Source: a virus
Length of the DNA stretch: 64,000 nt
Direction: 5' to 3' (one strand)
Virus record (IMG/VR): IMGVR_UViG_3300008110_010375
Numbering within the stretch: the stretch's first letter is position 1; each line of letters begins with the position of its first letter. A program made the translations under genes and the position numbers. The notes below the pieces were generated by a model. That model worked only from the letters and a program-made list of their open reading frames with translations. It was not told the DNA's origin and searched no databases. This document shows, in pieces, positions 2,337-58,550 of the stretch.

Positions 2337-4048
2337 TCTACTTCAAAGCAATCCGTTGGAAGAACTTCTTATCAACAGGAAACGCTTTCACCGAGCTGAA
2401 GTTGAACCAGTCGGACACCACACTCATCGTAGGTGAGAACGGTGCCGGCAAGTCGACGCTGCTCGATGCATTGTCGTTTGTACTGTACAACAAGCCATTC
2501 CGCAAAGTCAACAAGTCTCAGCTGATGAACTCGATCAACAAGAAAGATACGTTGGTTGAGATCGACTTCGACATTGGGTCGAACCGATACCACATCAAGC
2601 GCGGCATGAAGCCGAACGTCTTCGAGGTTCACCAGAACGGTAAGCTGCTCAACCAAGAGGCGGCGGACCGCGACTATCAGACTGTGCTTGAGAAGCAGAT
2701 CCTAAAGCTGAATCACAAGAGCTTCTGTCAAGTCGTGGTGCTCGGCTCAGCCTCGTTCGTCCCGTTCATGGAGCTTCCCGCCGGTCAGCGGCGCGAGGTG
2801 ATCGAAGACTTGCTCGACATCCAGATATTCTCGGTGATGAACTCACTGCTCAGGGAAAAGATCTCAGGCAACAACGCCGCGATCACCAAGGTCGAGTACG
2901 AATGCGACCTGACGTCTGAGAAGATCAAGATGCAGACGCAGATCATCGAGAGCACGAAGCTTCTCAACGACACATACGTGGCGAAGCTCAAGGAAGAGCT
3001 AAATAAGAACACAGACAGGATAGAGGAGGAGCGCGATGCTGTTAAGCGACTCAGCGAGAAAGCAGTATCCCTTAAAGCCGAGATCGAAGACCAAGAGTCG
3101 ATCGGCGAGCGTCAAAAAAAGCTACAACGACTCGAGGTACAACTCGCTGATAAAGTTGCCAAACTCACGGCTGACATCGAGTTCTTTTCTTCACACGATA
3201 GCTGTCCTACATGCAAGCAGGACATTGACCATACCTTTAAGTGTGAGACTGTCGGTGATAAACAGGGCCAAGTTCAAGAAACACGGGACGCAATCGATAA
3301 ACTACAAGTGGAGATCACGCGAGTTCTTGATAGGCTACAATCCATCGCACGGGTGGCTGCTGACATTAATTCCGTGAACATCGAAGTCATCACCAAGAAC
3401 AACACGATCAGCAATTTGATCGACCAGTGCAAGTCGCTCGCGGCTAAGATCAAGGAGACTCAGGAGTACAACGATAAGCTCGTGATCGACGACGGCGTCA
3501 TGAAGGAGCTCGAGAGAACGCTCGGTAGACTCTCCGACGACAAGGCCGAGCTGCTGCGCGACAAAGACGCCCTCAACGTCGCGTCGATCATCCTCAAAGA
3601 TACCGGCATCAAGGCTAAGATCATCAAGCAGTACGTGCCGGTCATCAACCGACTCATCAACAAGTACCTGTCGGCGATGGACTTCTTCGTCAACTTCGAG
3701 ATGGATGAGAACTTCGAGGAGAAGATCAAGTCGCGATTCCGCGATGAGTTCTCATACGCATCGTTCTCAGAGGGCGAGAAGATGAGGATCAATCTGGCGA
3801 TCCTATTCACGTGGCGGGCGATCGCCAGACTCCGCAACAGCGCGTCGACGAATCTACTGATCATGGACGAGGTGCTCGACGGGTCGCTCGACTCCAACGG
3901 CACCGATGAGTTCCTCAAGATAATCAGCAACCTGACGCTCGACACCAACACCTTCATCATCAGCCACAAAGTGGATCAGATGGTGGATAAGTTCGCCAAC
4001 GTCATCAAGTTTGAGAAGCACAAGAACTTCAGTAGGATAGCGGCGTGA
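2333..4048 (+). CDS. 46: Recombination ATPase subunit gp46 (Rad50/SbcC-like)
   Basis: Walker A GENGAGKS, CPTC zinc hook, FSEGE signature, LLIMDE Walker B. Confidence 0.96.
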   Translation: MIYFKAIRWKNFLSTGNAFTELKLNQSDTTLIVGENGAGKSTLLDALSFVLYNKPFRKVNKSQLMNSINKKDTLVEIDFDIGSNRYHIKRGMKPNVFEVHQNGKLLNQEAADRDYQTVLEKQILKLNHKSFCQVVVLGSASFVPFMELPAGQRREVIEDLLDIQIFSVMNSLLREKISGNNAAITKVEYECDLTSEKIKMQTQIIESTKLLNDTYVAKLKEELNKNTDRIEEERDAVKRLSEKAVSLKAEIEDQESIGERQKKLQRLEVQLADKVAKLTADIEFFSSHDSCPTCKQDIDHTFKCETVGDKQGQVQETRDAIDKLQVEITRVLDRLQSIARVAADINSVNIEVITKNNTISNLIDQCKSLAAKIKETQEYNDKLVIDDGVMKELERTLGRLSDDKAELLRDKDALNVASIILKDTGIKAKIIKQYVPVINRLINKYLSAMDFFVNFEMDENFEEKIKSRFRDEFSYASFSEGEKMRINLAILFTWRAIARLRNSASTNLLIMDEVLDGSLDSNGTDEFLKIISNLTLDTNTFIISHKVDQMVDKFANVIKFEKHKNFSRIAA

Positions 4049-4686
4049 CCAAGAAGCAATATCTTAACAACTTTCATTCAACTGAACTCGCTGATAAGAT
4101 AAAGAAACTTTACAGCTGCGAGTTGATCACACACGATCAATATATGAATATGAATCCTAGAAAAAGTTTAATTTATCAGTATTTTACTATTGACACTTTC
4201 TACTATTTGGATATGATATTTGACAATGAAGACTACGACTATTACGATATAGGTTGTGGTGATAATTTTTTTAAGAAAATTTATAGCGACAAGTTTAATG
4301 TAATAGGTATAGATACTAATGATGATGCTGATCTTCACTGTACCTTTGAAGAATTTTTGAGTAAGAATAGAAACAAAGTCGATAGAGCCTTTGCCATCAA
4401 CTCTCTGCATTTTGTACCATTTGAAAGAATAAAAGATAGAATCATAGAATACATATCAATGTTCAAGAAAGATGGTAAAGGGCTAATCACGTTCAATATA
4501 GGTATGATGAATAGGCTTAATAAAGTTCATCAGACTAAATACGTATTCGTTGAAGCGATGCAGAGTTTAAAGAATGATCTAAAAGATAAAGTCGACTTCT
4601 TCTTCGTTGAAATAAGCGATGAAGGAGCGAACGGAATCGACGGTACCACTAAGATATGCTTCAAAGTTTTAGAAGAGATTGAATGA
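4045..4686 (+). CDS. Putative class I SAM-dependent methyltransferase, AT-rich
   Basis: YDIGCGDN motif I, VIGID, INSLHF; visibly lower GC than flanks. Confidence 0.6.
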   Translation: MTKKQYLNNFHSTELADKIKKLYSCELITHDQYMNMNPRKSLIYQYFTIDTFYYLDMIFDNEDYDYYDIGCGDNFFKKIYSDKFNVIGIDTNDDADLHCTFEEFLSKNRNKVDRAFAINSLHFVPFERIKDRIIEYISMFKKDGKGLITFNIGMMNRLNKVHQTKYVFVEAMQSLKNDLKDKVDFFFVEISDEGANGIDGTTKICFKVLEEIE

Positions 4687-5191
4687 TATGACAGAGATCG
4701 TAAAGTTTCCTAACCCCATACTAAGGATGCCGACGCGCCAGTTCAACTTCGTCAACCCAGAAGTTGATCCACATGAGCTCGTGCAGGAGATGCTTCAAGT
4801 TATGAACGACAACAAGGGTATAGGTCTGTCGGCGAATCAGATCGGCTACAACCTACGCGTATTTGTGATGCGCGGTTTAGAACAGAACTACGCCTGCTTC
4901 AACCCAAAGATCGTGAGCTTCGGCGAAGGCACGAACGTTCTTGAAGAGGGATGCCTATCTTTTCCCGGTCTGAACGTAAAGATCAAGCGATTCAACAGCC
5001 TGCGCCTAAGGTTCCAGACCGCGTCAGGCGACGTGGATACGATCAACGTTTCAGGTCTGACGGCCCGTGTCGTGCAGCACGAGATCGACCATCTAGATGG
5101 ATACGAGTTCTTCAATCGCGCGAATAAGTTTCATCGCGACAAAGCGTTCAAGAAGCAGAAGGAATACTTAAATGGAACTAGATCAGCATAA
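4679..5191 (+). CDS. def: Peptide deformylase
   Basis: GIGLSANQ, EGCLS and QHEIDHLDG motifs. Confidence 0.95.
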   Translation: MNDMTEIVKFPNPILRMPTRQFNFVNPEVDPHELVQEMLQVMNDNKGIGLSANQIGYNLRVFVMRGLEQNYACFNPKIVSFGEGTNVLEEGCLSFPGLNVKIKRFNSLRLRFQTASGDVDTINVSGLTARVVQHEIDHLDGYEFFNRANKFHRDKAFKKQKEYLNGTRSA

Positions 5192-38910: not shown

Positions 38911-39198
38911 ATGAGATACCTGTTACCCATAGCATTGATCTTATCCACGCCGGCGTTCGCTCAACCCTGCAGCGACGCCAACGAAGTTCATAAGCTTCTT
39001 GAGAAAGACTACAGCGAGAAGCCGTTCATCGAGATGGACGACAACCTTGGTCGTCACCTCGTCATCTACTTAAACGCGTCGACTCTTTCGTGGACCGCGG
39101 TCTCCTTGGATAAGGAGAAGAAAATCACGTGCGCGGTCGCAGCTGGAAGCAACTTCAAGCCTGCAAATCTCAAAGAATTCTTTGGTGACCCAAGCTGA
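38911..39198 (+). CDS. Secreted hypothetical protein
   Basis: GGAGG RBS, signal peptide ending AFA, Cys pair. Confidence 0.6.
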   Translation: MRYLLPIALILSTPAFAQPCSDANEVHKLLEKDYSEKPFIEMDDNLGRHLVIYLNASTLSWTAVSLDKEKKITCAVAAGSNFKPANLKEFFGDPS

Positions 39199-40018
39199 TG
39201 AGAAACACCTCACCCTCGTATGCTACAGGAGTGGCTACGGGGGTGACTTCCTATGCGCACTCATCGATGAAGCCCTAGGTAACTCTAGCTTTCAATCGAG
39301 GGACGGGAACAATCGTTACTGGTTCGACAACTACGTATTCTCGTCCTGCAACAATCAGATTAAAAGCCTTCACCACATATTCTCATACTACTACGGTCAA
39401 GACAGCGTTCAACTCATCGACCAGCTTCTGGGTAAAGCTGAATGGGTCGATGAGATCAAGACGATCTACGATATGTGCTACGATGAGAACGAACAGTTCT
39501 TCATCGACAACATAATCTATCACATCACGAGCGGCCTGAGGCTTCCCTTCAGATACAACGTTGGAAACCTTCACTACATGGGTGAGTTTCCGGCGTTCGA
39601 CGTTGGTAAGATACACAGCCCGATGAGCATCGTCACGCTTAAGACGGAGAATGATCTATACTTTCAGTACTTCCATTCCTTCTCACAGATCAAGACGAAC
39701 TTCAAAGTTCTTAAGCGCGCTCGAGTGATGAAGAAGGAAGTGTTCGACTGCGAACCTATATCGAACTCTAGGATCATCGACGCCGGCAAGCTGTTCTTTG
39801 AGGATTCGCTCGACGATACGATATCGGATACGCTCTCTGAAATCATCGGACGTGAAGTGAAGATAAACATCGATGAGCTGAAAAGATACAGGAAAGACAA
39901 CGTTGAAGTGCTCGCGAAGTACTTCGGCGACGACTTTCAATCGCTAGACGCGGCGTCTTTCAGGGAGAGGAAGCTCGAGCTTTTTAGGAGAGTGGCCTCT
40001 GGCCAAGAGCTTCAATGA
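39182..40018 (+). CDS. GxxG[DS]F paralog family member 1
   Basis: CYRSGYGGDFLCALI; DAGKLFF. Confidence 0.7.
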   Translation: MVTQADEKHLTLVCYRSGYGGDFLCALIDEALGNSSFQSRDGNNRYWFDNYVFSSCNNQIKSLHHIFSYYYGQDSVQLIDQLLGKAEWVDEIKTIYDMCYDENEQFFIDNIIYHITSGLRLPFRYNVGNLHYMGEFPAFDVGKIHSPMSIVTLKTENDLYFQYFHSFSQIKTNFKVLKRARVMKKEVFDCEPISNSRIIDAGKLFFEDSLDDTISDTLSEIIGREVKINIDELKRYRKDNVEVLAKYFGDDFQSLDAASFRERKLELFRRVASGQELQ

Positions 40019-41676
40019 CCAACAGGTTGATCTTCGTCACGTATAAGGGTGGAAACTGCGGCGACTTCTTCTGCTTCCTTTTGAATAAAGCACTGGGCAA
40101 CGTTGATCCTTCTTACCAAGACGACACGAATCGCTGCGTCTTTAAGAACACTGCCTTCATCGATCACGGCATCAAGGGACTCGAGGAAGTATTCAGGCGA
40201 TACAACGGGCACAAATACATCATGGCCATCGATCAGATGGATAGGACCGGCCTCGAATACTTAGACTGGACCAGAAGAATACACGACTTCTGCTACGATG
40301 AAGACCGAGATCAGTTCATTAGAAACGTGCGCGACTACATTGGTGCCAACTTACACGTTTACGATAGAAACACCGTCGCGAGCATACACTACTACGACTA
40401 CTTTGATGGATTCACTTTAGCTGACGTCTATCAGCCGTCGACCACGATTCAGCTGATGACTGAAGACCCGCTATGTCACGCGTACTTCTTCTACCTTGCG
40501 AGGTACAAGCAACGATTCAGACTAATAAGAAACGCACCTGATTGGTATGATTTCATGGACGATCCTCCTATGGTTAATAAGCTTCCCTGCGACGTGACCA
40601 TCGTCGACTCAGGCAAGCTGTTCTTCGGCTCGAGCTACGATGATGAAGCCGAATCGATCTTGACAGATTCGCTTGGAATTGAGGTTAAATTTGATAGAGA
40701 AGTGTTGAACGTCTACCGCCAAAGCAACGAAAAGATTTTAGTCGATGGTTTCGGTAAGAACTACAGGAATATGTCTCTTATCGAATTTAGGACTGCGCGA
40801 AAAAAGATCTTTGAAGAGAACGTGTCTGAGTTCGTCAAGCTTCGCAGCTCCTTGTCGATGAAAGACTATCCGCAAGACTTCAATGAATACACGCAGCTGT
40901 TCTTAAGGGAGATCGATGAATGGATAAGATCACACCGATTCGTCGAGTACTATGGACTCGAGCATTTCCCAAGAAGAGACGTGATCCTTGGGACGACACA
41001 CCAGCTCGACGAGATTCACTGGGCCCACAAGGGACGGATCGCCGTGATGAACGGCGAGTACAAGTATCACCGAAGGCTGACTGACTATAAAGTCAAGCAG
41101 GTCAGTCATCACAGCGAGCTCTTCGAGGGCGACGTATTCGTCGTGTCGATGCCGAGCTGCATAACAACGAACGGTCACAGAGACTTTGAAGACTTGCTCG
41201 ATCATTGCTTGGCAAAGAAGATCCCAATACACATTGATGGGGCGTGGTTCGGTCAGTGCAAGAACTTTGAGCTCGACGTCTCACATCCAGCCATCAAGTC
41301 GGTCAGCGTCAGTTTATCAAAAGCGCTCGGCATGGGCAGCAACAGGATAGGGATACGATACACGCGCGAGAAGGTGAACGGACCGATCTCAATCATGAAC
41401 GACTTCGGCTACGTAAACGTATCAGACATGTGGCTCGGCGTCGAGAGCATGCGTAGGTTCGGAGCCGACTTCTGGTGGAAGAACTACGGCGACCTATATT
41501 CTAAAGTGTGTGAAGACTTCAAGCTTGAGGAGACCGACAGTATACATCTCGGAAGGCGTGGTGGTAAATACTACGGGATTCGAACGCCGCTTAGGTTATT
41601 GATCGACGGAACGTTTGACATCCGCGGCACCGACGCTGGTCTCAATGATATCGAGAAGAATGAAAGAAATGATTGA
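40015..41676 (+). CDS. Paralog family member 2 fused to a PLP-dependent (fold type I) domain
   Basis: TYKGGNCGDFFCFLL and DSGKLFF; then IHIDGAW and SLSK (PLP lysine). Confidence 0.7.
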   Translation: MTNRLIFVTYKGGNCGDFFCFLLNKALGNVDPSYQDDTNRCVFKNTAFIDHGIKGLEEVFRRYNGHKYIMAIDQMDRTGLEYLDWTRRIHDFCYDEDRDQFIRNVRDYIGANLHVYDRNTVASIHYYDYFDGFTLADVYQPSTTIQLMTEDPLCHAYFFYLARYKQRFRLIRNAPDWYDFMDDPPMVNKLPCDVTIVDSGKLFFGSSYDDEAESILTDSLGIEVKFDREVLNVYRQSNEKILVDGFGKNYRNMSLIEFRTARKKIFEENVSEFVKLRSSLSMKDYPQDFNEYTQLFLREIDEWIRSHRFVEYYGLEHFPRRDVILGTTHQLDEIHWAHKGRIAVMNGEYKYHRRLTDYKVKQVSHHSELFEGDVFVVSMPSCITTNGHRDFEDLLDHCLAKKIPIHIDGAWFGQCKNFELDVSHPAIKSVSVSLSKALGMGSNRIGIRYTREKVNGPISIMNDFGYVNVSDMWLGVESMRRFGADFWWKNYGDLYSKVCEDFKLEETDSIHLGRRGGKYYGIRTPLRLLIDGTFDIRGTDAGLNDIEKNERND

Positions 41677-42328
41677 CTTTGGAAGCTTTGACTTCGACCT
41701 TGACTTAAAATCATTCCAAGATGAAGCTGAGCTCGCGCTCAACGGTCCAAGCGCGAAGGTGACTGGATCGAAGGGCCTCAATAAGTTCTACAATGTCGAG
41801 GGCGAAAGCAGGCGAAAGCTTATCGAATACTTCGACAATCACTTCCTCAAGAAGCTGATATGGCACGTCGAGTACTTCAACTCAGGCGAGCCGGCAGGTC
41901 TGCACACCGACGGCGCCGTATACAACGAGGGGTGCAAGACTGTTGTCGGCGTCATCATACCTCTCGCCTATAACACACATAAAGTCCCCTACACGGTGAC
42001 TTACGATCGCGTTCAGACCGAGTACAGGAAGCTTATGTTTAAGAACGGTGACATGCGTTATCTTGACACCGGCGAAATAGTTGAATATCGCGATAAATAT
42101 GAGTATGATCTGCTTAGTTTAAAGCATAATCCAAAAGGTACGCTCTACTACAAACAGTATGCCGACCTCAAAGTGCATGAGGAGTATGAATGGAAACTTG
42201 GCACTATGCTGATATTTGACACCCAGCGGTGGCACAGCTCATCTTGGTTCCTTTCAACACCAGATCTTCCAGATCATCTTGGTGAATACAAGAGATCAAT
42301 CATAGCTTTCGGTGACATAAAAAAATGA
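41669..42328 (+). CDS. 2OG-Fe(II) oxygenase-like protein
   Basis: LHTD...FDTQRWHSS...KRSI (HxD...H). Confidence 0.55.
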   Translation: MIDFGSFDFDLDLKSFQDEAELALNGPSAKVTGSKGLNKFYNVEGESRRKLIEYFDNHFLKKLIWHVEYFNSGEPAGLHTDGAVYNEGCKTVVGVIIPLAYNTHKVPYTVTYDRVQTEYRKLMFKNGDMRYLDTGEIVEYRDKYEYDLLSLKHNPKGTLYYKQYADLKVHEEYEWKLGTMLIFDTQRWHSSSWFLSTPDLPDHLGEYKRSIIAFGDIKK

Positions 42329-43191
42329 ACAAAAGAATTCTTGTCAACTATCAAGGTGGATACTGCGGAAGTTTCTTCTGCGGTTTAATCGCGCGTGCGC
42401 TGGATGTAGACCATATTTTAGAACATGATAATAAGATCAACATATACTACTATAGCAATAAAGACATCAAGACGATGTATGTTAAGACCTTTGGAAAACT
42501 TTTTGACATACGAAAAGGAGTGATCTCAAAAGAAGAGCTTAATGAGATCACTGAAAAAAAGTTAGATGCGTGTTACGTATATGCTAAGAATTTATATAAA
42601 ATTGTCGACGATGAAGATGAACAAGCATTTATTGAAAACATTAAAAGTTACTTTTCTGATTTAATGACTCTACAGAAGAGCGAGTATCTTATTGCGTCTA
42701 TTCATTACGCTTATAGATATAAAGACGTTGACATTCACGACATCTTTCCTGGTTCTACTATTCTTCATATCGTTACAGAAAACAAAAGACACGCAAGGTA
42801 TTTTCACCTTCTATATCACTATAAAACAAAAGACGATGAAACCGATAAAGTGCTTCAAAAAAATACTCTTACGTTGGAACAGATAAAGAAAGATTTTATT
42901 GATGTAATATCGCCCTCACCGTTTGATGACTCTTCTATTCATGTTGACATGGGTAAACTTATCTTTAACAGAGACTATGATCACTTCTCAGAGATTGAAC
43001 GTAAACTTTCTGAATCAATAGGAAAGTCCGTTGTGTTAGACAGAACCAAATTTTATGAATACGCCGATAGAAACATCGATATCATCAAAGGGATTTTAGG
43101 CGACGACTTCATGCAACAAACTGAGAAAGTTCAGATAGAGAAGTCGATCAAATTCATAGAAGGCGAAGTGCGTGTTAAGCGTCAACGATAA
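42325..43191 (+). CDS. Paralog family member 3 (AT-rich)
   Basis: NYQGGYCGSFFCGLI; DMGKLIF. Confidence 0.7.
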   Translation: MNKRILVNYQGGYCGSFFCGLIARALDVDHILEHDNKINIYYYSNKDIKTMYVKTFGKLFDIRKGVISKEELNEITEKKLDACYVYAKNLYKIVDDEDEQAFIENIKSYFSDLMTLQKSEYLIASIHYAYRYKDVDIHDIFPGSTILHIVTENKRHARYFHLLYHYKTKDDETDKVLQKNTLTLEQIKKDFIDVISPSPFDDSSIHVDMGKLIFNRDYDHFSEIERKLSESIGKSVVLDRTKFYEYADRNIDIIKGILGDDFMQQTEKVQIEKSIKFIEGEVRVKRQR

Positions 43192-44032
43192 AACGCTAGT
43201 TGTCGTAGGATATTACGGTGGCTACGGCGGTTCGTTCTTCGCTAATATCTTAAGGAAAAGCATAGATTATAACTCGCCGCAGTTCACGCCTATAAACGAT
43301 AAGAATGAATATGGATTTGATACTCGTGTTCTTGGAATTGAAAGATATACTATAAACACACTGATGAAAGCCTATGATCAAGGCTTCGATGTACTTCTGA
43401 ACATTAAACTTTTTGAAAACACCGGCAATAAAGAAGACGCTGAGTTCGGTAAACTGGTGAAGAGGATGTACATAGATTGCTACGACAATGATCGTTCGGT
43501 GTTTTGTAGAAATCTGACGTTGTATCTTAAAAAAAGACTTAGACTTAAAGACGGATACAACGTAATTAACTCACATTATTCTAGAAAATTTAGTGGTTTT
43601 AGCATATACGATGTATATGATAAAACAATATTTTTTCTCTTAAGCTCCGAACACTCCATGCGATCAAAGCATCATTTACTTTTCGAAATGCTCATGGACT
43701 GTAAGAAAGATCGCTTCAGCTATCCAGAATTAATTAAACAGAGCTTGAACTCGTTAGATGGTAAGATAGAGCCTCCAAAACCATTTGATTCCTGTGTTTT
43801 ATTGGATGTTGGAAAGTTGTTTCTACAAACTAAAAACAATGGAATCGAAGAAATAGAACGTATCTTATCTGAGTCTTTGAATATGAAAATAAACCTTGAC
43901 AAAGAGGCGATTGTCGAATATACTAATTCAAATATAAAGCTTTTGAACAATTTTCTAGGCATAGAAATAGAAGACGCCAGCTTTGACGATGTTAAACAAG
44001 CTATAAAAAACAAGCTAAAATCACTGATATAA
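43172..44032 (+). CDS. Paralog family member 4 (AT-rich)
   Basis: GYYGGYGGSFFANIL; DVGKLFL. Confidence 0.7.
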   Translation: MLSVNDKTLVVVGYYGGYGGSFFANILRKSIDYNSPQFTPINDKNEYGFDTRVLGIERYTINTLMKAYDQGFDVLLNIKLFENTGNKEDAEFGKLVKRMYIDCYDNDRSVFCRNLTLYLKKRLRLKDGYNVINSHYSRKFSGFSIYDVYDKTIFFLLSSEHSMRSKHHLLFEMLMDCKKDRFSYPELIKQSLNSLDGKIEPPKPFDSCVLLDVGKLFLQTKNNGIEEIERILSESLNMKINLDKEAIVEYTNSNIKLLNNFLGIEIEDASFDDVKQAIKNKLKSLI

Positions 44033-53617: not shown

Positions 53618-54470
53618 GGACGCGATACGCCAGTACAATGAGTTTTGGACGGGCGACGTCGACCCTGAATTCTATGAGTTCGGCGGGCTTCCGATACCGC
53701 TTTCGTTCTCATGGAAGCGCGTCTGCGTCAACTTATCCGGAGGCGCCGACAGCGCCCTGCTCATGGCCGCCCTGTGCAAAGTCATAATCGACAACGGTCT
53801 TAACACGAAAGTCGACGCCATAAGCTTCGCCAGGTGCTGGAGCAATCGACCGTGGCAGCCGTTCATAGGCGAAGCGGTGTTTAAGAAGATCAAGTCGATG
53901 TTTCCCGACGTGGTCGGCGTTCAGCACAAACCCTTCATAGCACCTGAGCTTGAGCACGCGGCCATCGGCTTCTTGACAGAAGACAACAAGAGTGCGTCGT
54001 CGATAACCACGAGAAGCTTCAACGACTTTCACTGCTTCTACAACGAAGACGTCGGAGCGGTGTTTCACGGCAGGACCAAGAACGCCCGCGACCTTCAAGA
54101 CCATCCGTGGAGGATGCAGGTTCGAGACGATCCACGCGAGGAGGATATGATCGAGCGACTGGAGCACTCGGAGAAGTATGTCTTCAGGCCTCTGCTGCTG
54201 GTGGAGAAGGACTGGGTCGTCGATCAGTACATTAGGAACGATTGGATGGAGTTGTTCGACACGACTCGAAGCTGCGAGGCGAACATCGATGAGTTCAACA
54301 GGGGCTGGAGATACAAAGCGGAAGATCCCATAGTCGAGTGTGGTGTATGCTATTGGTGCGTCGAGAGAAACTGGTCTTTGAAGAAGACGTTTGGATCGAC
54401 GTTGGTCTTCGAGGAAGTGGCGGCGGATAAATACGGTAATGGCCAACCTATCGATAAACGAACTTCTTAA
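53604..54470 (+). CDS. QueC-like PP-loop ATPase (copy 2)
   Basis: LSGGADS; TRSC...CGVCYWCVER. Confidence 0.75.
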   Translation: MSLVKDAIRQYNEFWTGDVDPEFYEFGGLPIPLSFSWKRVCVNLSGGADSALLMAALCKVIIDNGLNTKVDAISFARCWSNRPWQPFIGEAVFKKIKSMFPDVVGVQHKPFIAPELEHAAIGFLTEDNKSASSITTRSFNDFHCFYNEDVGAVFHGRTKNARDLQDHPWRMQVRDDPREEDMIERLEHSEKYVFRPLLLVEKDWVVDQYIRNDWMELFDTTRSCEANIDEFNRGWRYKAEDPIVECGVCYWCVERNWSLKKTFGSTLVFEEVAADKYGNGQPIDKRTS

Positions 54471-55728
54471 GCCGGGACGAGAGTTTAGATCGGCAAAGAT
54501 AGTTGAGAAGATGAAGTCCGGCAGCCCATTTGAGCTCGACACCGGAACCAAAGTCGTTCTTCTCTATGATAAAAACGTTGAAGACATCCTTCTTGATAAG
54601 AACAAGCTTTCAAAAGCTAAGAACATAGAGTTCACGACCAAGACCAACCAAAAGATCCCGCTGACTAAGATAAAGAAGAACTCTGAGTTTGGTGGAGCTG
54701 GGGGATCAGGATTGGGCGCCAAGGGTACGGCTATCGCGGAGTCGCTTCACGCTCTGTACGCTCAAGCCATCTTCGACTACGGATCAACTTCCGTCGACGC
54801 TTTGACGAAAGCTTCGAAGACGATCGATGTGACCGAGAGTCTGAATGATATGCTCAGCATGCCCGACGACTGGATAAAGTCGGCCGAAGCTTCGGCGAAG
54901 ATAATTCTATCAAACTTCAAGAGCGGAAAGAAGGTTCGCTTTCACCGAGGCTCGAGGTGGGTCAAGGCGCTTGAAGAAACTTTCAACAGGTTGAACAAGC
55001 AGCACGGCTCGTTCTCAGACATCAACAAGTGGTCGCCCGCTGACATATACCTCATCAGTGAAGCGGGATCAAAGATCGACTTCAGCAAGGCGAAGAACCT
55101 CACCGACTTAAACTCAATGATGTTCAGCGCTCTCAAGAGCAAAGACGTAGTCGGCATATCTCTGAAGAAGGTCGTCGGCAACGGCCACCTCAGCTTCTAC
55201 AACGTAGGCGATAAAAAGAAGAAGATCGAATTCAAGGACTACACCGTCGGTAAGACTGGCTTCTTTAATTCAAAAGACACGTTCATATTCTTCGAGGTCG
55301 ACGGACAACTTCAGATGAGAACCTTCCCATCGTTCCAAGGTGAGATCAAGGGTAAGAACGCCAGTCAAGGTAAGATAGGCTACGGCGGAATCGCGTCGAT
55401 CATTAGAACTAAGCTGAACGCCACGGCCCCCGACATCAACGCGACGAAAGCGAAGATAAAGGCGAAAGACTCAGACTTTCTCAAGAGCTTCTACGAGCTA
55501 TACCTAACCTTAAGCAAGGACGGCGGCAAGGTCAAGTACGACGAGTTCGTCAAGAAGTCATACGAACTAAACGAGGAGTGGATGCTTTCAAAGTACCTCG
55601 GCTCCTCATTGATCGACGTGCTTCTCAAGACTAAAATCAAGGACGGCAGGAACCTGTTCGTCTCGGCGATAGTCGACTACGCGGCTTCTTCGACAGACCT
55701 ATCGGGTCCATTCGCTAAGATTCAATAA
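54439..55728 (+). CDS. Hypothetical protein, restriction-endonuclease-like
   Basis: AES...KWSPADIYL...GISLKK (PD...SxK). Confidence 0.5.
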   Translation: MANLSINELLKPGREFRSAKIVEKMKSGSPFELDTGTKVVLLYDKNVEDILLDKNKLSKAKNIEFTTKTNQKIPLTKIKKNSEFGGAGGSGLGAKGTAIAESLHALYAQAIFDYGSTSVDALTKASKTIDVTESLNDMLSMPDDWIKSAEASAKIILSNFKSGKKVRFHRGSRWVKALEETFNRLNKQHGSFSDINKWSPADIYLISEAGSKIDFSKAKNLTDLNSMMFSALKSKDVVGISLKKVVGNGHLSFYNVGDKKKKIEFKDYTVGKTGFFNSKDTFIFFEVDGQLQMRTFPSFQGEIKGKNASQGKIGYGGIASIIRTKLNATAPDINATKAKIKAKDSDFLKSFYELYLTLSKDGGKVKYDEFVKKSYELNEEWMLSKYLGSSLIDVLLKTKIKDGRNLFVSAIVDYAASSTDLSGPFAKIQ

Positions 55729-55749: not shown

Positions 55750-56397
55750 ATGAAGACTTTTACAGACTTTCTGACCGAAGCAGCCGGCGCCAAGCTCAAA
55801 CACCTTGAGCATCCCGAGGACAACGCCGTGACTTCAGCCGCCGGCTTCACCCACGCTTTCAAGGCGCTTCACGACGTTCACAAGGCGCTGAAGGGTCAGA
55901 AGAGCACCTCGCACGTCACCACCAAGCTCGACGGATCGCCGTCGATAGTGTTCGGTCGCCATCCTCAGACGGGTAAGTTCTTCGTCGCATCGAAGTCGGC
56001 GTTCAACAAGAATCCAAAGATCAACTACAGCCACGAAGACATCGATCGCAACCACGGTCACTCACCGGGACTCGCATCGAAGCTCAAGCAGGCGCTTGAG
56101 CACCTACCGAAGGTGACGCCTAAGAAGGGCGTCTATCAGGGCGACTTCATGCACTCGCACGACGACAGGCACGAAACTGACACGCACGTTCACTTCAAGC
56201 CGAACACCATCAGCTACTCAATCAAGAAGAGCTCGCCCGAAGGTCAGAAGGCCGTCAAGTCGAAGATCGGCGTCGCGGTTCACACCAAGTACGAAGGAAA
56301 GAGCTTGGAAGACATGCACGCTACTCCACACGTTGACCATGAAAACTTCAAGCAGCATAGAGATGTACATCTAATCTCTACACAGGCTAAGATTTAA
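55750..56397 (+). CDS. RNA-ligase-like (DUF6267-type) protein, N-terminal half
   Basis: MKTFTDFLTEA, HLEHPED, TKLDGSP (motif I), YQGDFM, FKPNTI.Y, HTKY. Confidence 0.7.
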   Translation: MKTFTDFLTEAAGAKLKHLEHPEDNAVTSAAGFTHAFKALHDVHKALKGQKSTSHVTTKLDGSPSIVFGRHPQTGKFFVASKSAFNKNPKINYSHEDIDRNHGHSPGLASKLKQALEHLPKVTPKKGVYQGDFMHSHDDRHETDTHVHFKPNTISYSIKKSSPEGQKAVKSKIGVAVHTKYEGKSLEDMHATPHVDHENFKQHRDVHLISTQAKI

Positions 56398-57314
56398 TGG
56401 GTGATTGGTCAAAATTAATAACAGTTAACTTTGTAGGTGGTTATTGTGGAGATTTCATTTGCTCTCTTGTGTATAACAGCTATTATGGCTCTCAAGTAGA
56501 TTTTTTTAATAGTGTAACCAAAGCTAAATTTAGTCCTAACATGGCGAGCTTTAAAAATATAGCTTTTGAAGGTGAAGGACTAAGAAACTTTGATATGATT
56601 ACTAATCTTTATTATAATAATGATTTTTATTCAACGTTCGTTAATGATATCAATAGAGTTAGTGATAATATAGATTTTTTTGATTATGCTTATTCCCATG
56701 TTGCAAAAATTTATAGAACTTGTTATGATCCCGACAAACAAACATTTATTAATAATGTTCTTGACTACTGCAGAAATGTAGTCCCTAGTGATCTAAAAGA
56801 TTTTACAATTATTACTCATCATTCTACTGATACTAGAATTCCAGAATTCAAATTTAGTAACATTTTTTTAGGATCACATAATATTGCTATTGTTAGCTCT
56901 GATTCAAAATTTGACAGATATTTTAGACTTTTAGGATATCATAAGTTTTATAAAAGATTATATACAGATAGAACATTAAAACAAGCATTTCAACAGATGA
57001 GAGCTTTAGAATCAGAATTTTTGATAAGTTGTGAAAGATCTGTTCTTAACGATATGGGTGAAATTAAAATTTACGTAGATAAATTTCTTTTCAGCAATGA
57101 CTTTACATATGTTAAACAAATGGAAGATATATTTTCTTCTATAATGGGAAAGCAAATAGTCTTTAACAAAGATGCTATTAAAACATATAGAGAAAACAAT
57201 AGAAAGATTTATTCACGATACTTAAACATCCCAGAAGATTTTGATCATGTTGATCCAATCAATGTATCAAAGATAAATGCTTTTATGGATGATGTAGAGG
57301 GTAAGAATGTCTAA
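56397..57314 (+). CDS. Paralog family member 5 (very AT-rich insert)
   Basis: MGDWSKLITVNFVGGYCGDFICSL; YVDKFLF. Confidence 0.7.
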   Translation: MGDWSKLITVNFVGGYCGDFICSLVYNSYYGSQVDFFNSVTKAKFSPNMASFKNIAFEGEGLRNFDMITNLYYNNDFYSTFVNDINRVSDNIDFFDYAYSHVAKIYRTCYDPDKQTFINNVLDYCRNVVPSDLKDFTIITHHSTDTRIPEFKFSNIFLGSHNIAIVSSDSKFDRYFRLLGYHKFYKRLYTDRTLKQAFQQMRALESEFLISCERSVLNDMGEIKIYVDKFLFSNDFTYVKQMEDIFSSIMGKQIVFNKDAIKTYRENNRKIYSRYLNIPEDFDHVDPINVSKINAFMDDVEGKNV

Positions 57315-57849
57315 TTTAACCAAAGAACACAGTGATGCATTTGAACATCACATGGCAAAAGCAAAAGAGATTCATGACAAGCAGCCTCATGACTTTCACG
57401 ACATCGTTGGGAAGCACGCCGAACACATCACGACGTACATAAACCAAACGGTGCGCAGCGGTACGAAGCCGACGACCAAGGGTCTTAGGGCACACATCGC
57501 GGCTAGACACCAGAAGAACATAGACGCGGTCAGCACACCAGCGGCCAAGGCGAAGAAGACGGAGTCGATGAACGCCGATCTCGCACATCACGACACCCAT
57601 GAGCAGCACTTTGTAAACGCTCTCAAGATACACCATCACATCCAAGCGGCCAAGGACATATTGGTCGACGGTTTGAACAAAGCCTCGAAGCAGCACAACC
57701 CACTCGAGCACCACATCGATGGGAAGGAGACGCATCCCGAAGGCTACGTCGCACATCACAATGGACAGTCGATTAAACTAGTGAACAGGGGCGAGTTCTC
57801 ACGAGCGAACTTCGCGGCGACTAAAGCATGGAAGACTGGTCAAAGCTGA
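57307..57849 (+). CDS. RNA-ligase-like (DUF6267-type) protein, C-terminal half
   Basis: YIN..VR, PEGYV (motif IV), KLVNRGEFSRANF (motif V). Confidence 0.7.
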   Translation: MSNLTKEHSDAFEHHMAKAKEIHDKQPHDFHDIVGKHAEHITTYINQTVRSGTKPTTKGLRAHIAARHQKNIDAVSTPAAKAKKTESMNADLAHHDTHEQHFVNALKIHHHIQAAKDILVDGLNKASKQHNPLEHHIDGKETHPEGYVAHHNGQSIKLVNRGEFSRANFAATKAWKTGQS

Positions 57850-58550
57850 TCACCATAAACTACCCGCACGGGTACCATGGTGACTTCATCGCATGCCTCA
57901 TAACCAACACCAAGCCGATTCTCAGCGAGGGCCTCACCGCGACCTACACGACTCCAGAGGTGACGTCGTCGTTCGGTGTAAAGAACCTCGATGCGATCGT
58001 TGGTATGCACCTAAGCATGGACTGCAGGCACGTCTTATTCGATGATGAGTCTGAGTTCGCCAGAAGACAGGTTAACTACTACAGCCAGCTTCACGGCGAA
58101 GACTTTAGGCAGAACTTGAAAGAAGACCTTCGCTGGAAGCTCGATCACCTGCACGGAGTGAAGACGGTCTTCAACACCCACTACTGCAAGCACCAATCTT
58201 TCCTTCCGCTGCAAGAGGTGTTTCCCGGATCCCTCAACGTCTACCTTACGCTTGAGAACCCCAACAACAAACGAATATATGACTTCTTGTTTGAGCATAA
58301 GATACTGCACCACTACAGAAACATGACGGCGTATAGGTTCTATAGAAACCATCACAGCGATCCTCGAGACGCCGAGAAACCCATATACGTCGACAGGCTC
58401 ATGGCCGAAGATGGATACGTGTACGCGAAGATCGTTGAGCACATGTTCGACAGCTGGTTCGACCTCGAGGCCTTAAGCGAATACAAGCGACTGAACAAAG
58501 AACTACTTCTACAGAATGGATACGAATATGAAGCTCTTGATCACTGGTAA
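57828..58550 (+). CDS. Paralog family member 6
   Basis: MEDWSKLITINYPHGYHGDFIACL; YVDRL. Confidence 0.7.
   Translation: MEDWSKLITINYPHGYHGDFIACLITNTKPILSEGLTATYTTPEVTSSFGVKNLDAIVGMHLSMDCRHVLFDDESEFARRQVNYYSQLHGEDFRQNLKEDLRWKLDHLHGVKTVFNTHYCKHQSFLPLQEVFPGSLNVYLTLENPNNKRIYDFLFEHKILHHYRNMTAYRFYRNHHSDPRDAEKPIYVDRLMAEDGYVYAKIVEHMFDSWFDLEALSEYKRLNKELLLQNGYEYEALDHW

Follow-up and report, generated by a model that had tools for sequence, protein, structure and literature searches.

Genes in pieces have been described in phage genomes for nrdA/mobE, gene 60/mobA and gene 43/seg (Edgell et al. 2010, PMC2988022). At gene 43 an endonuclease may have invaded a gene that was already split, and the two products 43A and 43B co-purify and are active (PMC2988022). 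The Aeh1 nrdA-a/mobE/nrdA-b locus divides one active site over two chains with a gene between them and neither intron nor intein (Friedrich et al. 2007; Crona et al. 2011, PMC3045599), and the insertion-derived tails of Aeh1 NrdA are essential (PMC3045599). T4 topoisomerase genes 39/60 with mobA exemplify a lineage-wide fission relative to intact relatives (PMC2988022), and Dassa et al. 2009 (PMC2677866) describe fractured genes with split inteins whose halves flank an intervening ORF in phage metagenomes.

Here we analyze a 64,000-nucleotide stretch of viral DNA (the window) in which a gene of the DUF6267 family is divided into two genes with an AT-rich gene, the cargo, between them. As in split gp43, a conserved enzyme gene of T4-like phages is found in two parts and different phages have different occupants in the gap; in contrast to gp43, most DUF6267 alleles are spacer-free with an ATGA overlap, two of three occupants are non-nuclease accessory genes, and joint activity of the halves is a prediction where 43A and 43B co-purify and are active. 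The window shares its divided active site, intervening gene and lack of intron or intein with Aeh1 nrdA, but its insert neither encodes an endonuclease nor caused the split, and its halves are without insertion-derived tails. It differs from genes 39/60 in having no endonuclease or bypass element and in being split at a subdomain linker, and from fractured split-intein genes in having no intein sequence, the joined halves being 1–3 residues off intact homologues. Comparison with related loci shows that the gene underwent fission in a T4-like ancestor and that the junction was later colonized as a slot, and suggests that the cargo was passed on by homologous recombination. This gene fission, with its repeatedly colonized junction, is previously unreported, and belongs to the genes-in-pieces kind with no new mobility mechanism. 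Better sampling resolves here an order of events, fission first and passengers after, that was out of reach in older single-genome cases such as split gp43.

A DUF6267 gene in two pieces

The window comes from a T4-like phage genome, with ORFs resembling, as judged by eye from their translations, recombination nuclease, clamp loader, DNA polymerase, UvsX, helicase and ThyX-like proteins. The nearest genome found, IMG/VR record G001 (157.6 kb, 98% complete), has 82–86% DNA identity around the locus. The original prediction had placed ligase motifs I and III in the left ORF and IV and V in the right ORF, with the insert coupled by TAATG on the left and by an RBS plus an overlapping ATG on the right; the ORF list, Pfam and PHROG matches, motifs and sequence bear out this layout:

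55750–56397, plus strand: DUF6267 N-terminal gene (215 aa) with motif I K59-L-D-G, motif III-like QGDFM, a capsid-targeting-like leader in residues 1–10 and a His-rich composition (10%)
55924–55935, plus strand: motif I KLDG (KxDG), K59 being the adenylated lysine predicted from the fold; KxDG is present in 49/49 split rows
56137–56151, plus strand: motif III-like QGDFM of the N-terminal gene
56260–57446, no strand assigned: tract common to the window and phage L081, judged recently exchanged from its near-identity
56353–56396, plus strand: left AT-rich flank tract, apparently brought in along with the cargo, an AT-rich relative being the source (identity to L082 versus L001)
56397–57314, plus strand: cargo gene (305 aa, 27% GC) of a multi-copy phage family with motif [YF]xGGxxG[DE]F and, from its fold model, a predicted sulfotransferase/P-loop-kinase fold
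57296–57314, plus strand: Shine-Dalgarno-like AGAGGGT (57296–57302) and 8-nt overlap of cargo stop and C-terminal gene start (ATG/TAA), read from the sequence
57307–57849, plus strand: DUF6267 C-terminal gene (180 aa), helical subdomain plus motifs IV and V, without a capsid-targeting-like leader
57307–57375, plus strand: right AT-rich flank tract, apparently from the donor lineage (identity to L082 and L127 versus L001)
57739–57750, plus strand: motif IV EGYV of the C-terminal gene
57775–57789, plus strand: motif V KLVNR of the C-terminal gene
57828–58550, plus strand: paralogue 6 of the cargo family (240 aa), which follows the C-terminal gene here and is found in empty-allele relatives too

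The 55750–56397 product matches DUF6267/PF19782 model positions 2–196 (E 1.5e-64) and the 57307–57849 product positions 204–376 (E 7.6e-31), and PHROG 455 matches agree that these are two halves of one family. Aligned to intact 389-aa homologues, the joined halves differ by only 1–3 residues at the junction, and the two ORFs together equal one intact protein. An intact homologue modelled with AlphaFold (pLDDT 89) is best matched by RNA ligases, namely Naegleria RNA ligase 5cot (Z 9.2, rmsd 4.0, 185 aligned), RNA editing ligase 1 1xdn (Z 8.3) and T4 Rnl2 1s68 (Z 7.9), and each of the top 14 rows is a ligase. DUF6267 has the fold and motifs I, III, IV and V in common with these enzymes, but identity is 10–13%, a large helical insertion precedes motif IV and no C-terminal domain follows motif V. 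Fold and motifs, at moderate structural scores (Z 8–9), thus predict that DUF6267 is a member of the RNA/DNA ligase superfamily. A PDB sequence search with intact DUF6267 gave no match, and Foldseek with the intact model returned nothing at E up to 0.001, though ligases ranked first; DUF6267 was absent from the literature searched, where we found no published ligase activity. In the intact model the split point is the loop between strand 208–212 and helix 224–242. Alignment of C-terminal sequences shows conservation of motifs IV and V.

The leader at 55750–55779 resembles T4 capsid-targeting sequences, and its F4 and E10 are invariant in alignments, with low model confidence for residues 1–16; for the protein to be packaged, the leaderless C chain would have to ride on the N chain. 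Both halves are very rich in His (10% in the N half, 13% in the C half), against 2% in the cargo.

The insert is coding end to end with overlaps at both junctions, and AT-rich codons run on into both flanks, as the original prediction had it; scored at third positions, they reach ~14 codons into the left flank and 20–25 codons into the right. The 8-nt overlap geometry on the right recurs in L082 and, with the other cargo type described below, in L128. A promoter scan gave counts at chance level. The insert has 27% GC (GC3 0.18) versus 0.52–0.54 (GC3 0.64–0.72) for the DUF6267 halves, a sharp step that might suggest an assembly chimera or a decaying pseudogene. However, the N half/cargo/C half layout recurs in the independent Logan assemblies L081, L082 and L083 (cargo identity 99% and 63%), which refutes a chimera, the frames are open and dN/dS is low, and we give either explanation practically no chance of being right.

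Empty alleles and the occupants of the junction

The original prediction held that the insertion had split the gene. Empty split alleles, divided at the same linker with no insert, occur at 24 distinct loci versus 50 intact loci in a sample biased to close relatives. In all nine of the closest viral loci (77–94% identity) the N-terminal ORF has its stop at the same position, and in the 8/9 that extend far enough the C-terminal gene starts via an ATGA overlap with nothing in between; the closest loci L001 (94% identical) and L003 (89%) are both split and empty. Every insert-free close relative is split, none with an intact gene, and nearly all empty alleles have the ATGA stop/start overlap. Standalone N-half homologues of 215–225 aa form dozens of clusters that end at the same motif. 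DUF6267 is intact in C48C1, the one cultured phage inspected.

Phylogenetic trees (quick IQ-TREE runs without bootstrap, with SH-aLRT as support) place the insert-bearing alleles as scattered tips amid empty split alleles. The N-half tree (84 rows) unites 45 split or N-only rows in one clade (SH-aLRT 99) and four further rows in a second, independent split clade with the same linker (support 97). In the N+C tree, from which junction codons were left out, the split clade has 23 rows (support 100) and the window clusters with L001 and L003, both empty (97). For the insert-bearing alleles, in groups named after the first tree was seen, monophyly is rejected (p-AU 1e-64), as it is for the two cargo types alone (p-AU 1e-5). 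With the halves already separate at 24 insert-free loci and insert alleles at the tips, the claim that the insertion split the gene falls: on these sequence comparisons the split predates the window's insert, which is not its cause. A gene that sits between two gene halves is no evidence of having caused their split.

The second fission is represented by L119:4001–5361 (P0182, P0183, P0166, P0186), also with an ATGA overlap. The empty split allele at L126:4646–4664, from the subclade that includes the type B alleles, has a 13-nt spacer and an altered C-terminal start instead of ATGA, and may preserve the trace of a lost insert.

Insertions have reached the junction on at least three occasions, and each type has empty neighbours in the tree. 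Type A cargo occurs in the window, L081 and L082/L083, with 63% identity between the two lineages. Type B cargo, another member of the family with 24% identity to type A, occurs in L106 and L128, whose copies are 55% identical to each other. The third occupant, in L117/L118, is an antisense GIY-YIG/NUMOD3 free-standing endonuclease ORF (L117:4676–5269, minus strand) exactly at the DUF6267 junction and with its own TATAAATA late promoter; it has no similarity to the cargo. The L117 allele is a classic endonuclease-in-split-gene layout, that of Aeh1 nrdA-a/mobE/nrdA-b.

Constraint on the two chains

Both halves are under strong purifying selection with no decay, with pairwise dN/dS of 0.03–0.13 wherever dS is unsaturated. 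Between L106 and L128, which both have type B cargo (cargo dS 1.4, N-half dS 1.6), dN/dS of the halves is 0.036 and 0.028, and because the halves stay constrained while ~900 nt apart, two separately made chains are indicated rather than recoding. Insert alleles thus serve as a natural control: recoding or read-through over ~900 nt is implausible, and both halves are constrained. Programmed −1 frameshifting in empty alleles was also rejected, as there is no slippery heptamer, a −1 frame stop lies just upstream and the mechanism is unworkable across an insert.

Because the active-site motifs are divided between the chains and both are constrained, the two chains are likely to reassemble into one nucleotidyltransferase of ligase fold. 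The alternative, that the halves are now independent and subfunctionalized and form no active ligase-like heterodimer, would fit the altered motif III in some alleles of the clade (QMEFM/QGEYM) and the restriction of the capsid-targeting-like leader to the N-terminal gene. Yet motifs I and IV/V, which form one active site in this fold, are kept on separate chains across the clade, the N and C genes are always adjacent and similarly constrained in the split alleles compared, and structural matches that span N-half helix 23–49 and C-half helices near 296–348 indirectly suggest a common helical bundle, making independent halves improbable. The fission site supplies a natural split point for a widespread, uncharacterized T4-like protein of RNA-ligase fold. 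The motif III-like segment reads QMEFM, not QGDFM, in the L096 N-terminal gene (4357–5004) and in one related N-terminal protein.

The cargo gene and its passage between phages

Over residues 1–303 the cargo model (pLDDT 93.6) resembles sulfotransferases and, less closely, P-loop kinases. In VIA-align comparisons the top 13 rows are of sulfotransferase fold, the best being 3rnl (Z 9.4, rmsd 4.3, 202 aligned), followed by NMP kinases (Z 6–6.7), and an Atlas search agrees with a sulfotransferase/P-loop fold; the sulfotransferase Pfam matched none of 100 cargo-family members. Examined for the canonical 5'-PSB and 3'-PB motifs of PAPS-dependent sulfotransferases, the family alignment has a loop GGxxG[DE]F and conserved H142, K183 and Y264. 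Together, these data predict an accessory enzyme-like gene of sulfotransferase/P-loop fold, and its dN/dS of 0.25–0.35 fits a maintained accessory gene. A profile search recovered 128 family representatives, with six paralogues in the window and six matches in the whole genome of G001. Members are often found directly behind DUF6267, in a neighbourhood of SDR, radical SAM and methyltransferase genes, and the cargo is probably part of this adjacent tailoring cluster. Direct scans of IMG/VR and cultured phages found no cargo, an alignment scan found L084-type loci only, and type B cargo was not found in IMG/VR.

The near-identical N-terminus ascribed to paralogue 6 holds as a common N-terminal motif (34 nt, 71% identical), but overall identity to the cargo is only 21–24%. 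Paralogue 6 is 67–68% identical in the empty-allele relatives L001 and L003 and forms a separate subfamily in the tree; we rejected an origin of the cargo by its duplication given the low identity and different subfamilies.

The flanks of the insert are mosaic. On the left, the window matches L082 at 36/42 nt versus 31/42 for L001, with the next 21 nt 21/21 identical to L001; on the right it matches L082 at 50/63 nt versus 37/63 for L001, and the AT-rich empty allele L127 at 38/47. Beyond the flanks the likeness reverses and the window is closer to L001 than to L082. Because the flanks resemble L082 over L001, they appear to mark where an import from an AT-rich relative crossed over. The residues R and T close to the N-half end were rejected as insert-specific marks, being present also in empty L095, L107 and L127. 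The window and L081 differ at 8 positions in the ~1190 nt of 56260–57446, a tract whose left end is set by only 17 nt of contig, versus ~199 in the next 1740 nt (~11% divergence), and cargo dS is 0.016 versus 0.39–0.51 for neighbour genes. By these divergences there is a second, recent transfer between the window and L081 lineages. Homologous recombination through the conserved halves explains both transfers.

In the ancestor of a large T4-like clade, DUF6267 underwent fission in the loop between its N-terminal nucleotidyltransferase part and helical C-terminal part to give two translationally coupled genes with an ATGA overlap. The simplest cause would be a small frameshift in the linker, the alternative being an ancient, since-lost endonuclease insertion. 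Fission opened an intergenic slot that tolerates insertions and was filled independently at least three times. The window's cargo may have entered this slot through a rare local rearrangement, in an AT-rich lineage, from a position just downstream of DUF6267; because type A subfamily members sit after intact DUF6267 (L084, L130) or after the C-terminal gene (L085), a short-range rearrangement would be enough to place it in the junction. Homologous recombination via the conserved halves would then have carried it from the AT-rich lineage to the GC-rich lineage of the window, as the mosaic flanks suggest, and later, by the same route, between close relatives. The cargo would be a passenger coupled at both ends without mobility machinery of its own.

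Searches of the insert for nuclease, intron, intein and transposon features found none. The ends have no terminal repeat or target duplication, Rfam gave no match at E up to 1, and the junction has no residues beyond those of intact homologues that could represent intein halves. A group I or II intron was rejected on the overlapping, end-to-end coding and the Rfam result; an insertion sequence or transposon on the missing transposase fold, inverted repeats and target duplication; and a homing endonuclease on the confident sulfotransferase/P-loop kinase model.

The original prediction also raised an undescribed kind of mobility, and a new mobile element able to split a gene and re-establish translation of both flanking parts would explain two different members of a multi-copy family at one junction and a recent spread with co-converted flanks. 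We consider it very improbable: the split is older than the insert, the fold is that of a transferase or kinase and neither nuclease nor recombinase, terminal repeats and target duplication are absent, and the dN/dS suits a maintained accessory gene. Other family members occupy ordinary gene boundaries, in many cases immediately behind the C-terminal gene, and proximity explains the repeated capture, while homologous recombination accounts for the spread.

An endonuclease could instead stand at the root of the clade, a GIY-YIG-like free-standing homing endonuclease having made the split and later been precisely deleted in most lineages. The L117/L118 ORF exactly at the junction and precedents such as mobE in Aeh1 nrdA (PMC2988022) speak for this origin, but L117 is a deeply nested tip with empty neighbours, empty alleles nearly all have a clean ATGA and no added tails where the mobE split left essential tails (PMC3045599), and the second clade underwent its split there without any element. 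We therefore think such an origin unlikely; if true, it would change only how the split arose, and the window's cargo would still be a late arrival. There is a similarly small chance that the junction is a target of L117-like GIY-YIG homing endonucleases and that non-nuclease inserts spread by destroying the target site, which would make the cargo a passive plug hitchhiking on an endonuclease conflict and the fission site a programmable gene-capture slot. Our preferred reading, which we consider likely, remains fission followed by passengers.

Other parts of the window show related features. Four more cargo-family paralogues are clustered at 39182–44032, two of them AT-rich (35% GC), and G001 has a matching cluster of four; the paralogue at 40015–41676 is fused to an extra domain of ~280 aa. 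Another AT-rich ORF (4045–4686; 32% GC, 213 aa) is coupled behind the recombination nuclease gene; AT-rich imports are not unique to the DUF6267 locus. The gene just upstream of DUF6267 (54439–55728) occupies a hypervariable slot that has mutually unrelated proteins in the loci compared (L001, L003, L004, L094–L096, L100, L106, L108 and L126). The window's gene in this slot belongs to PHROG 1462, with nothing firm from a Pfam search and weak Atlas leads to restriction endonucleases (0.85–0.86), and many of the slot's proteins have PD-(D/E/S)xK-like motifs, as judged by eye, some with capsid-targeting-like leaders.
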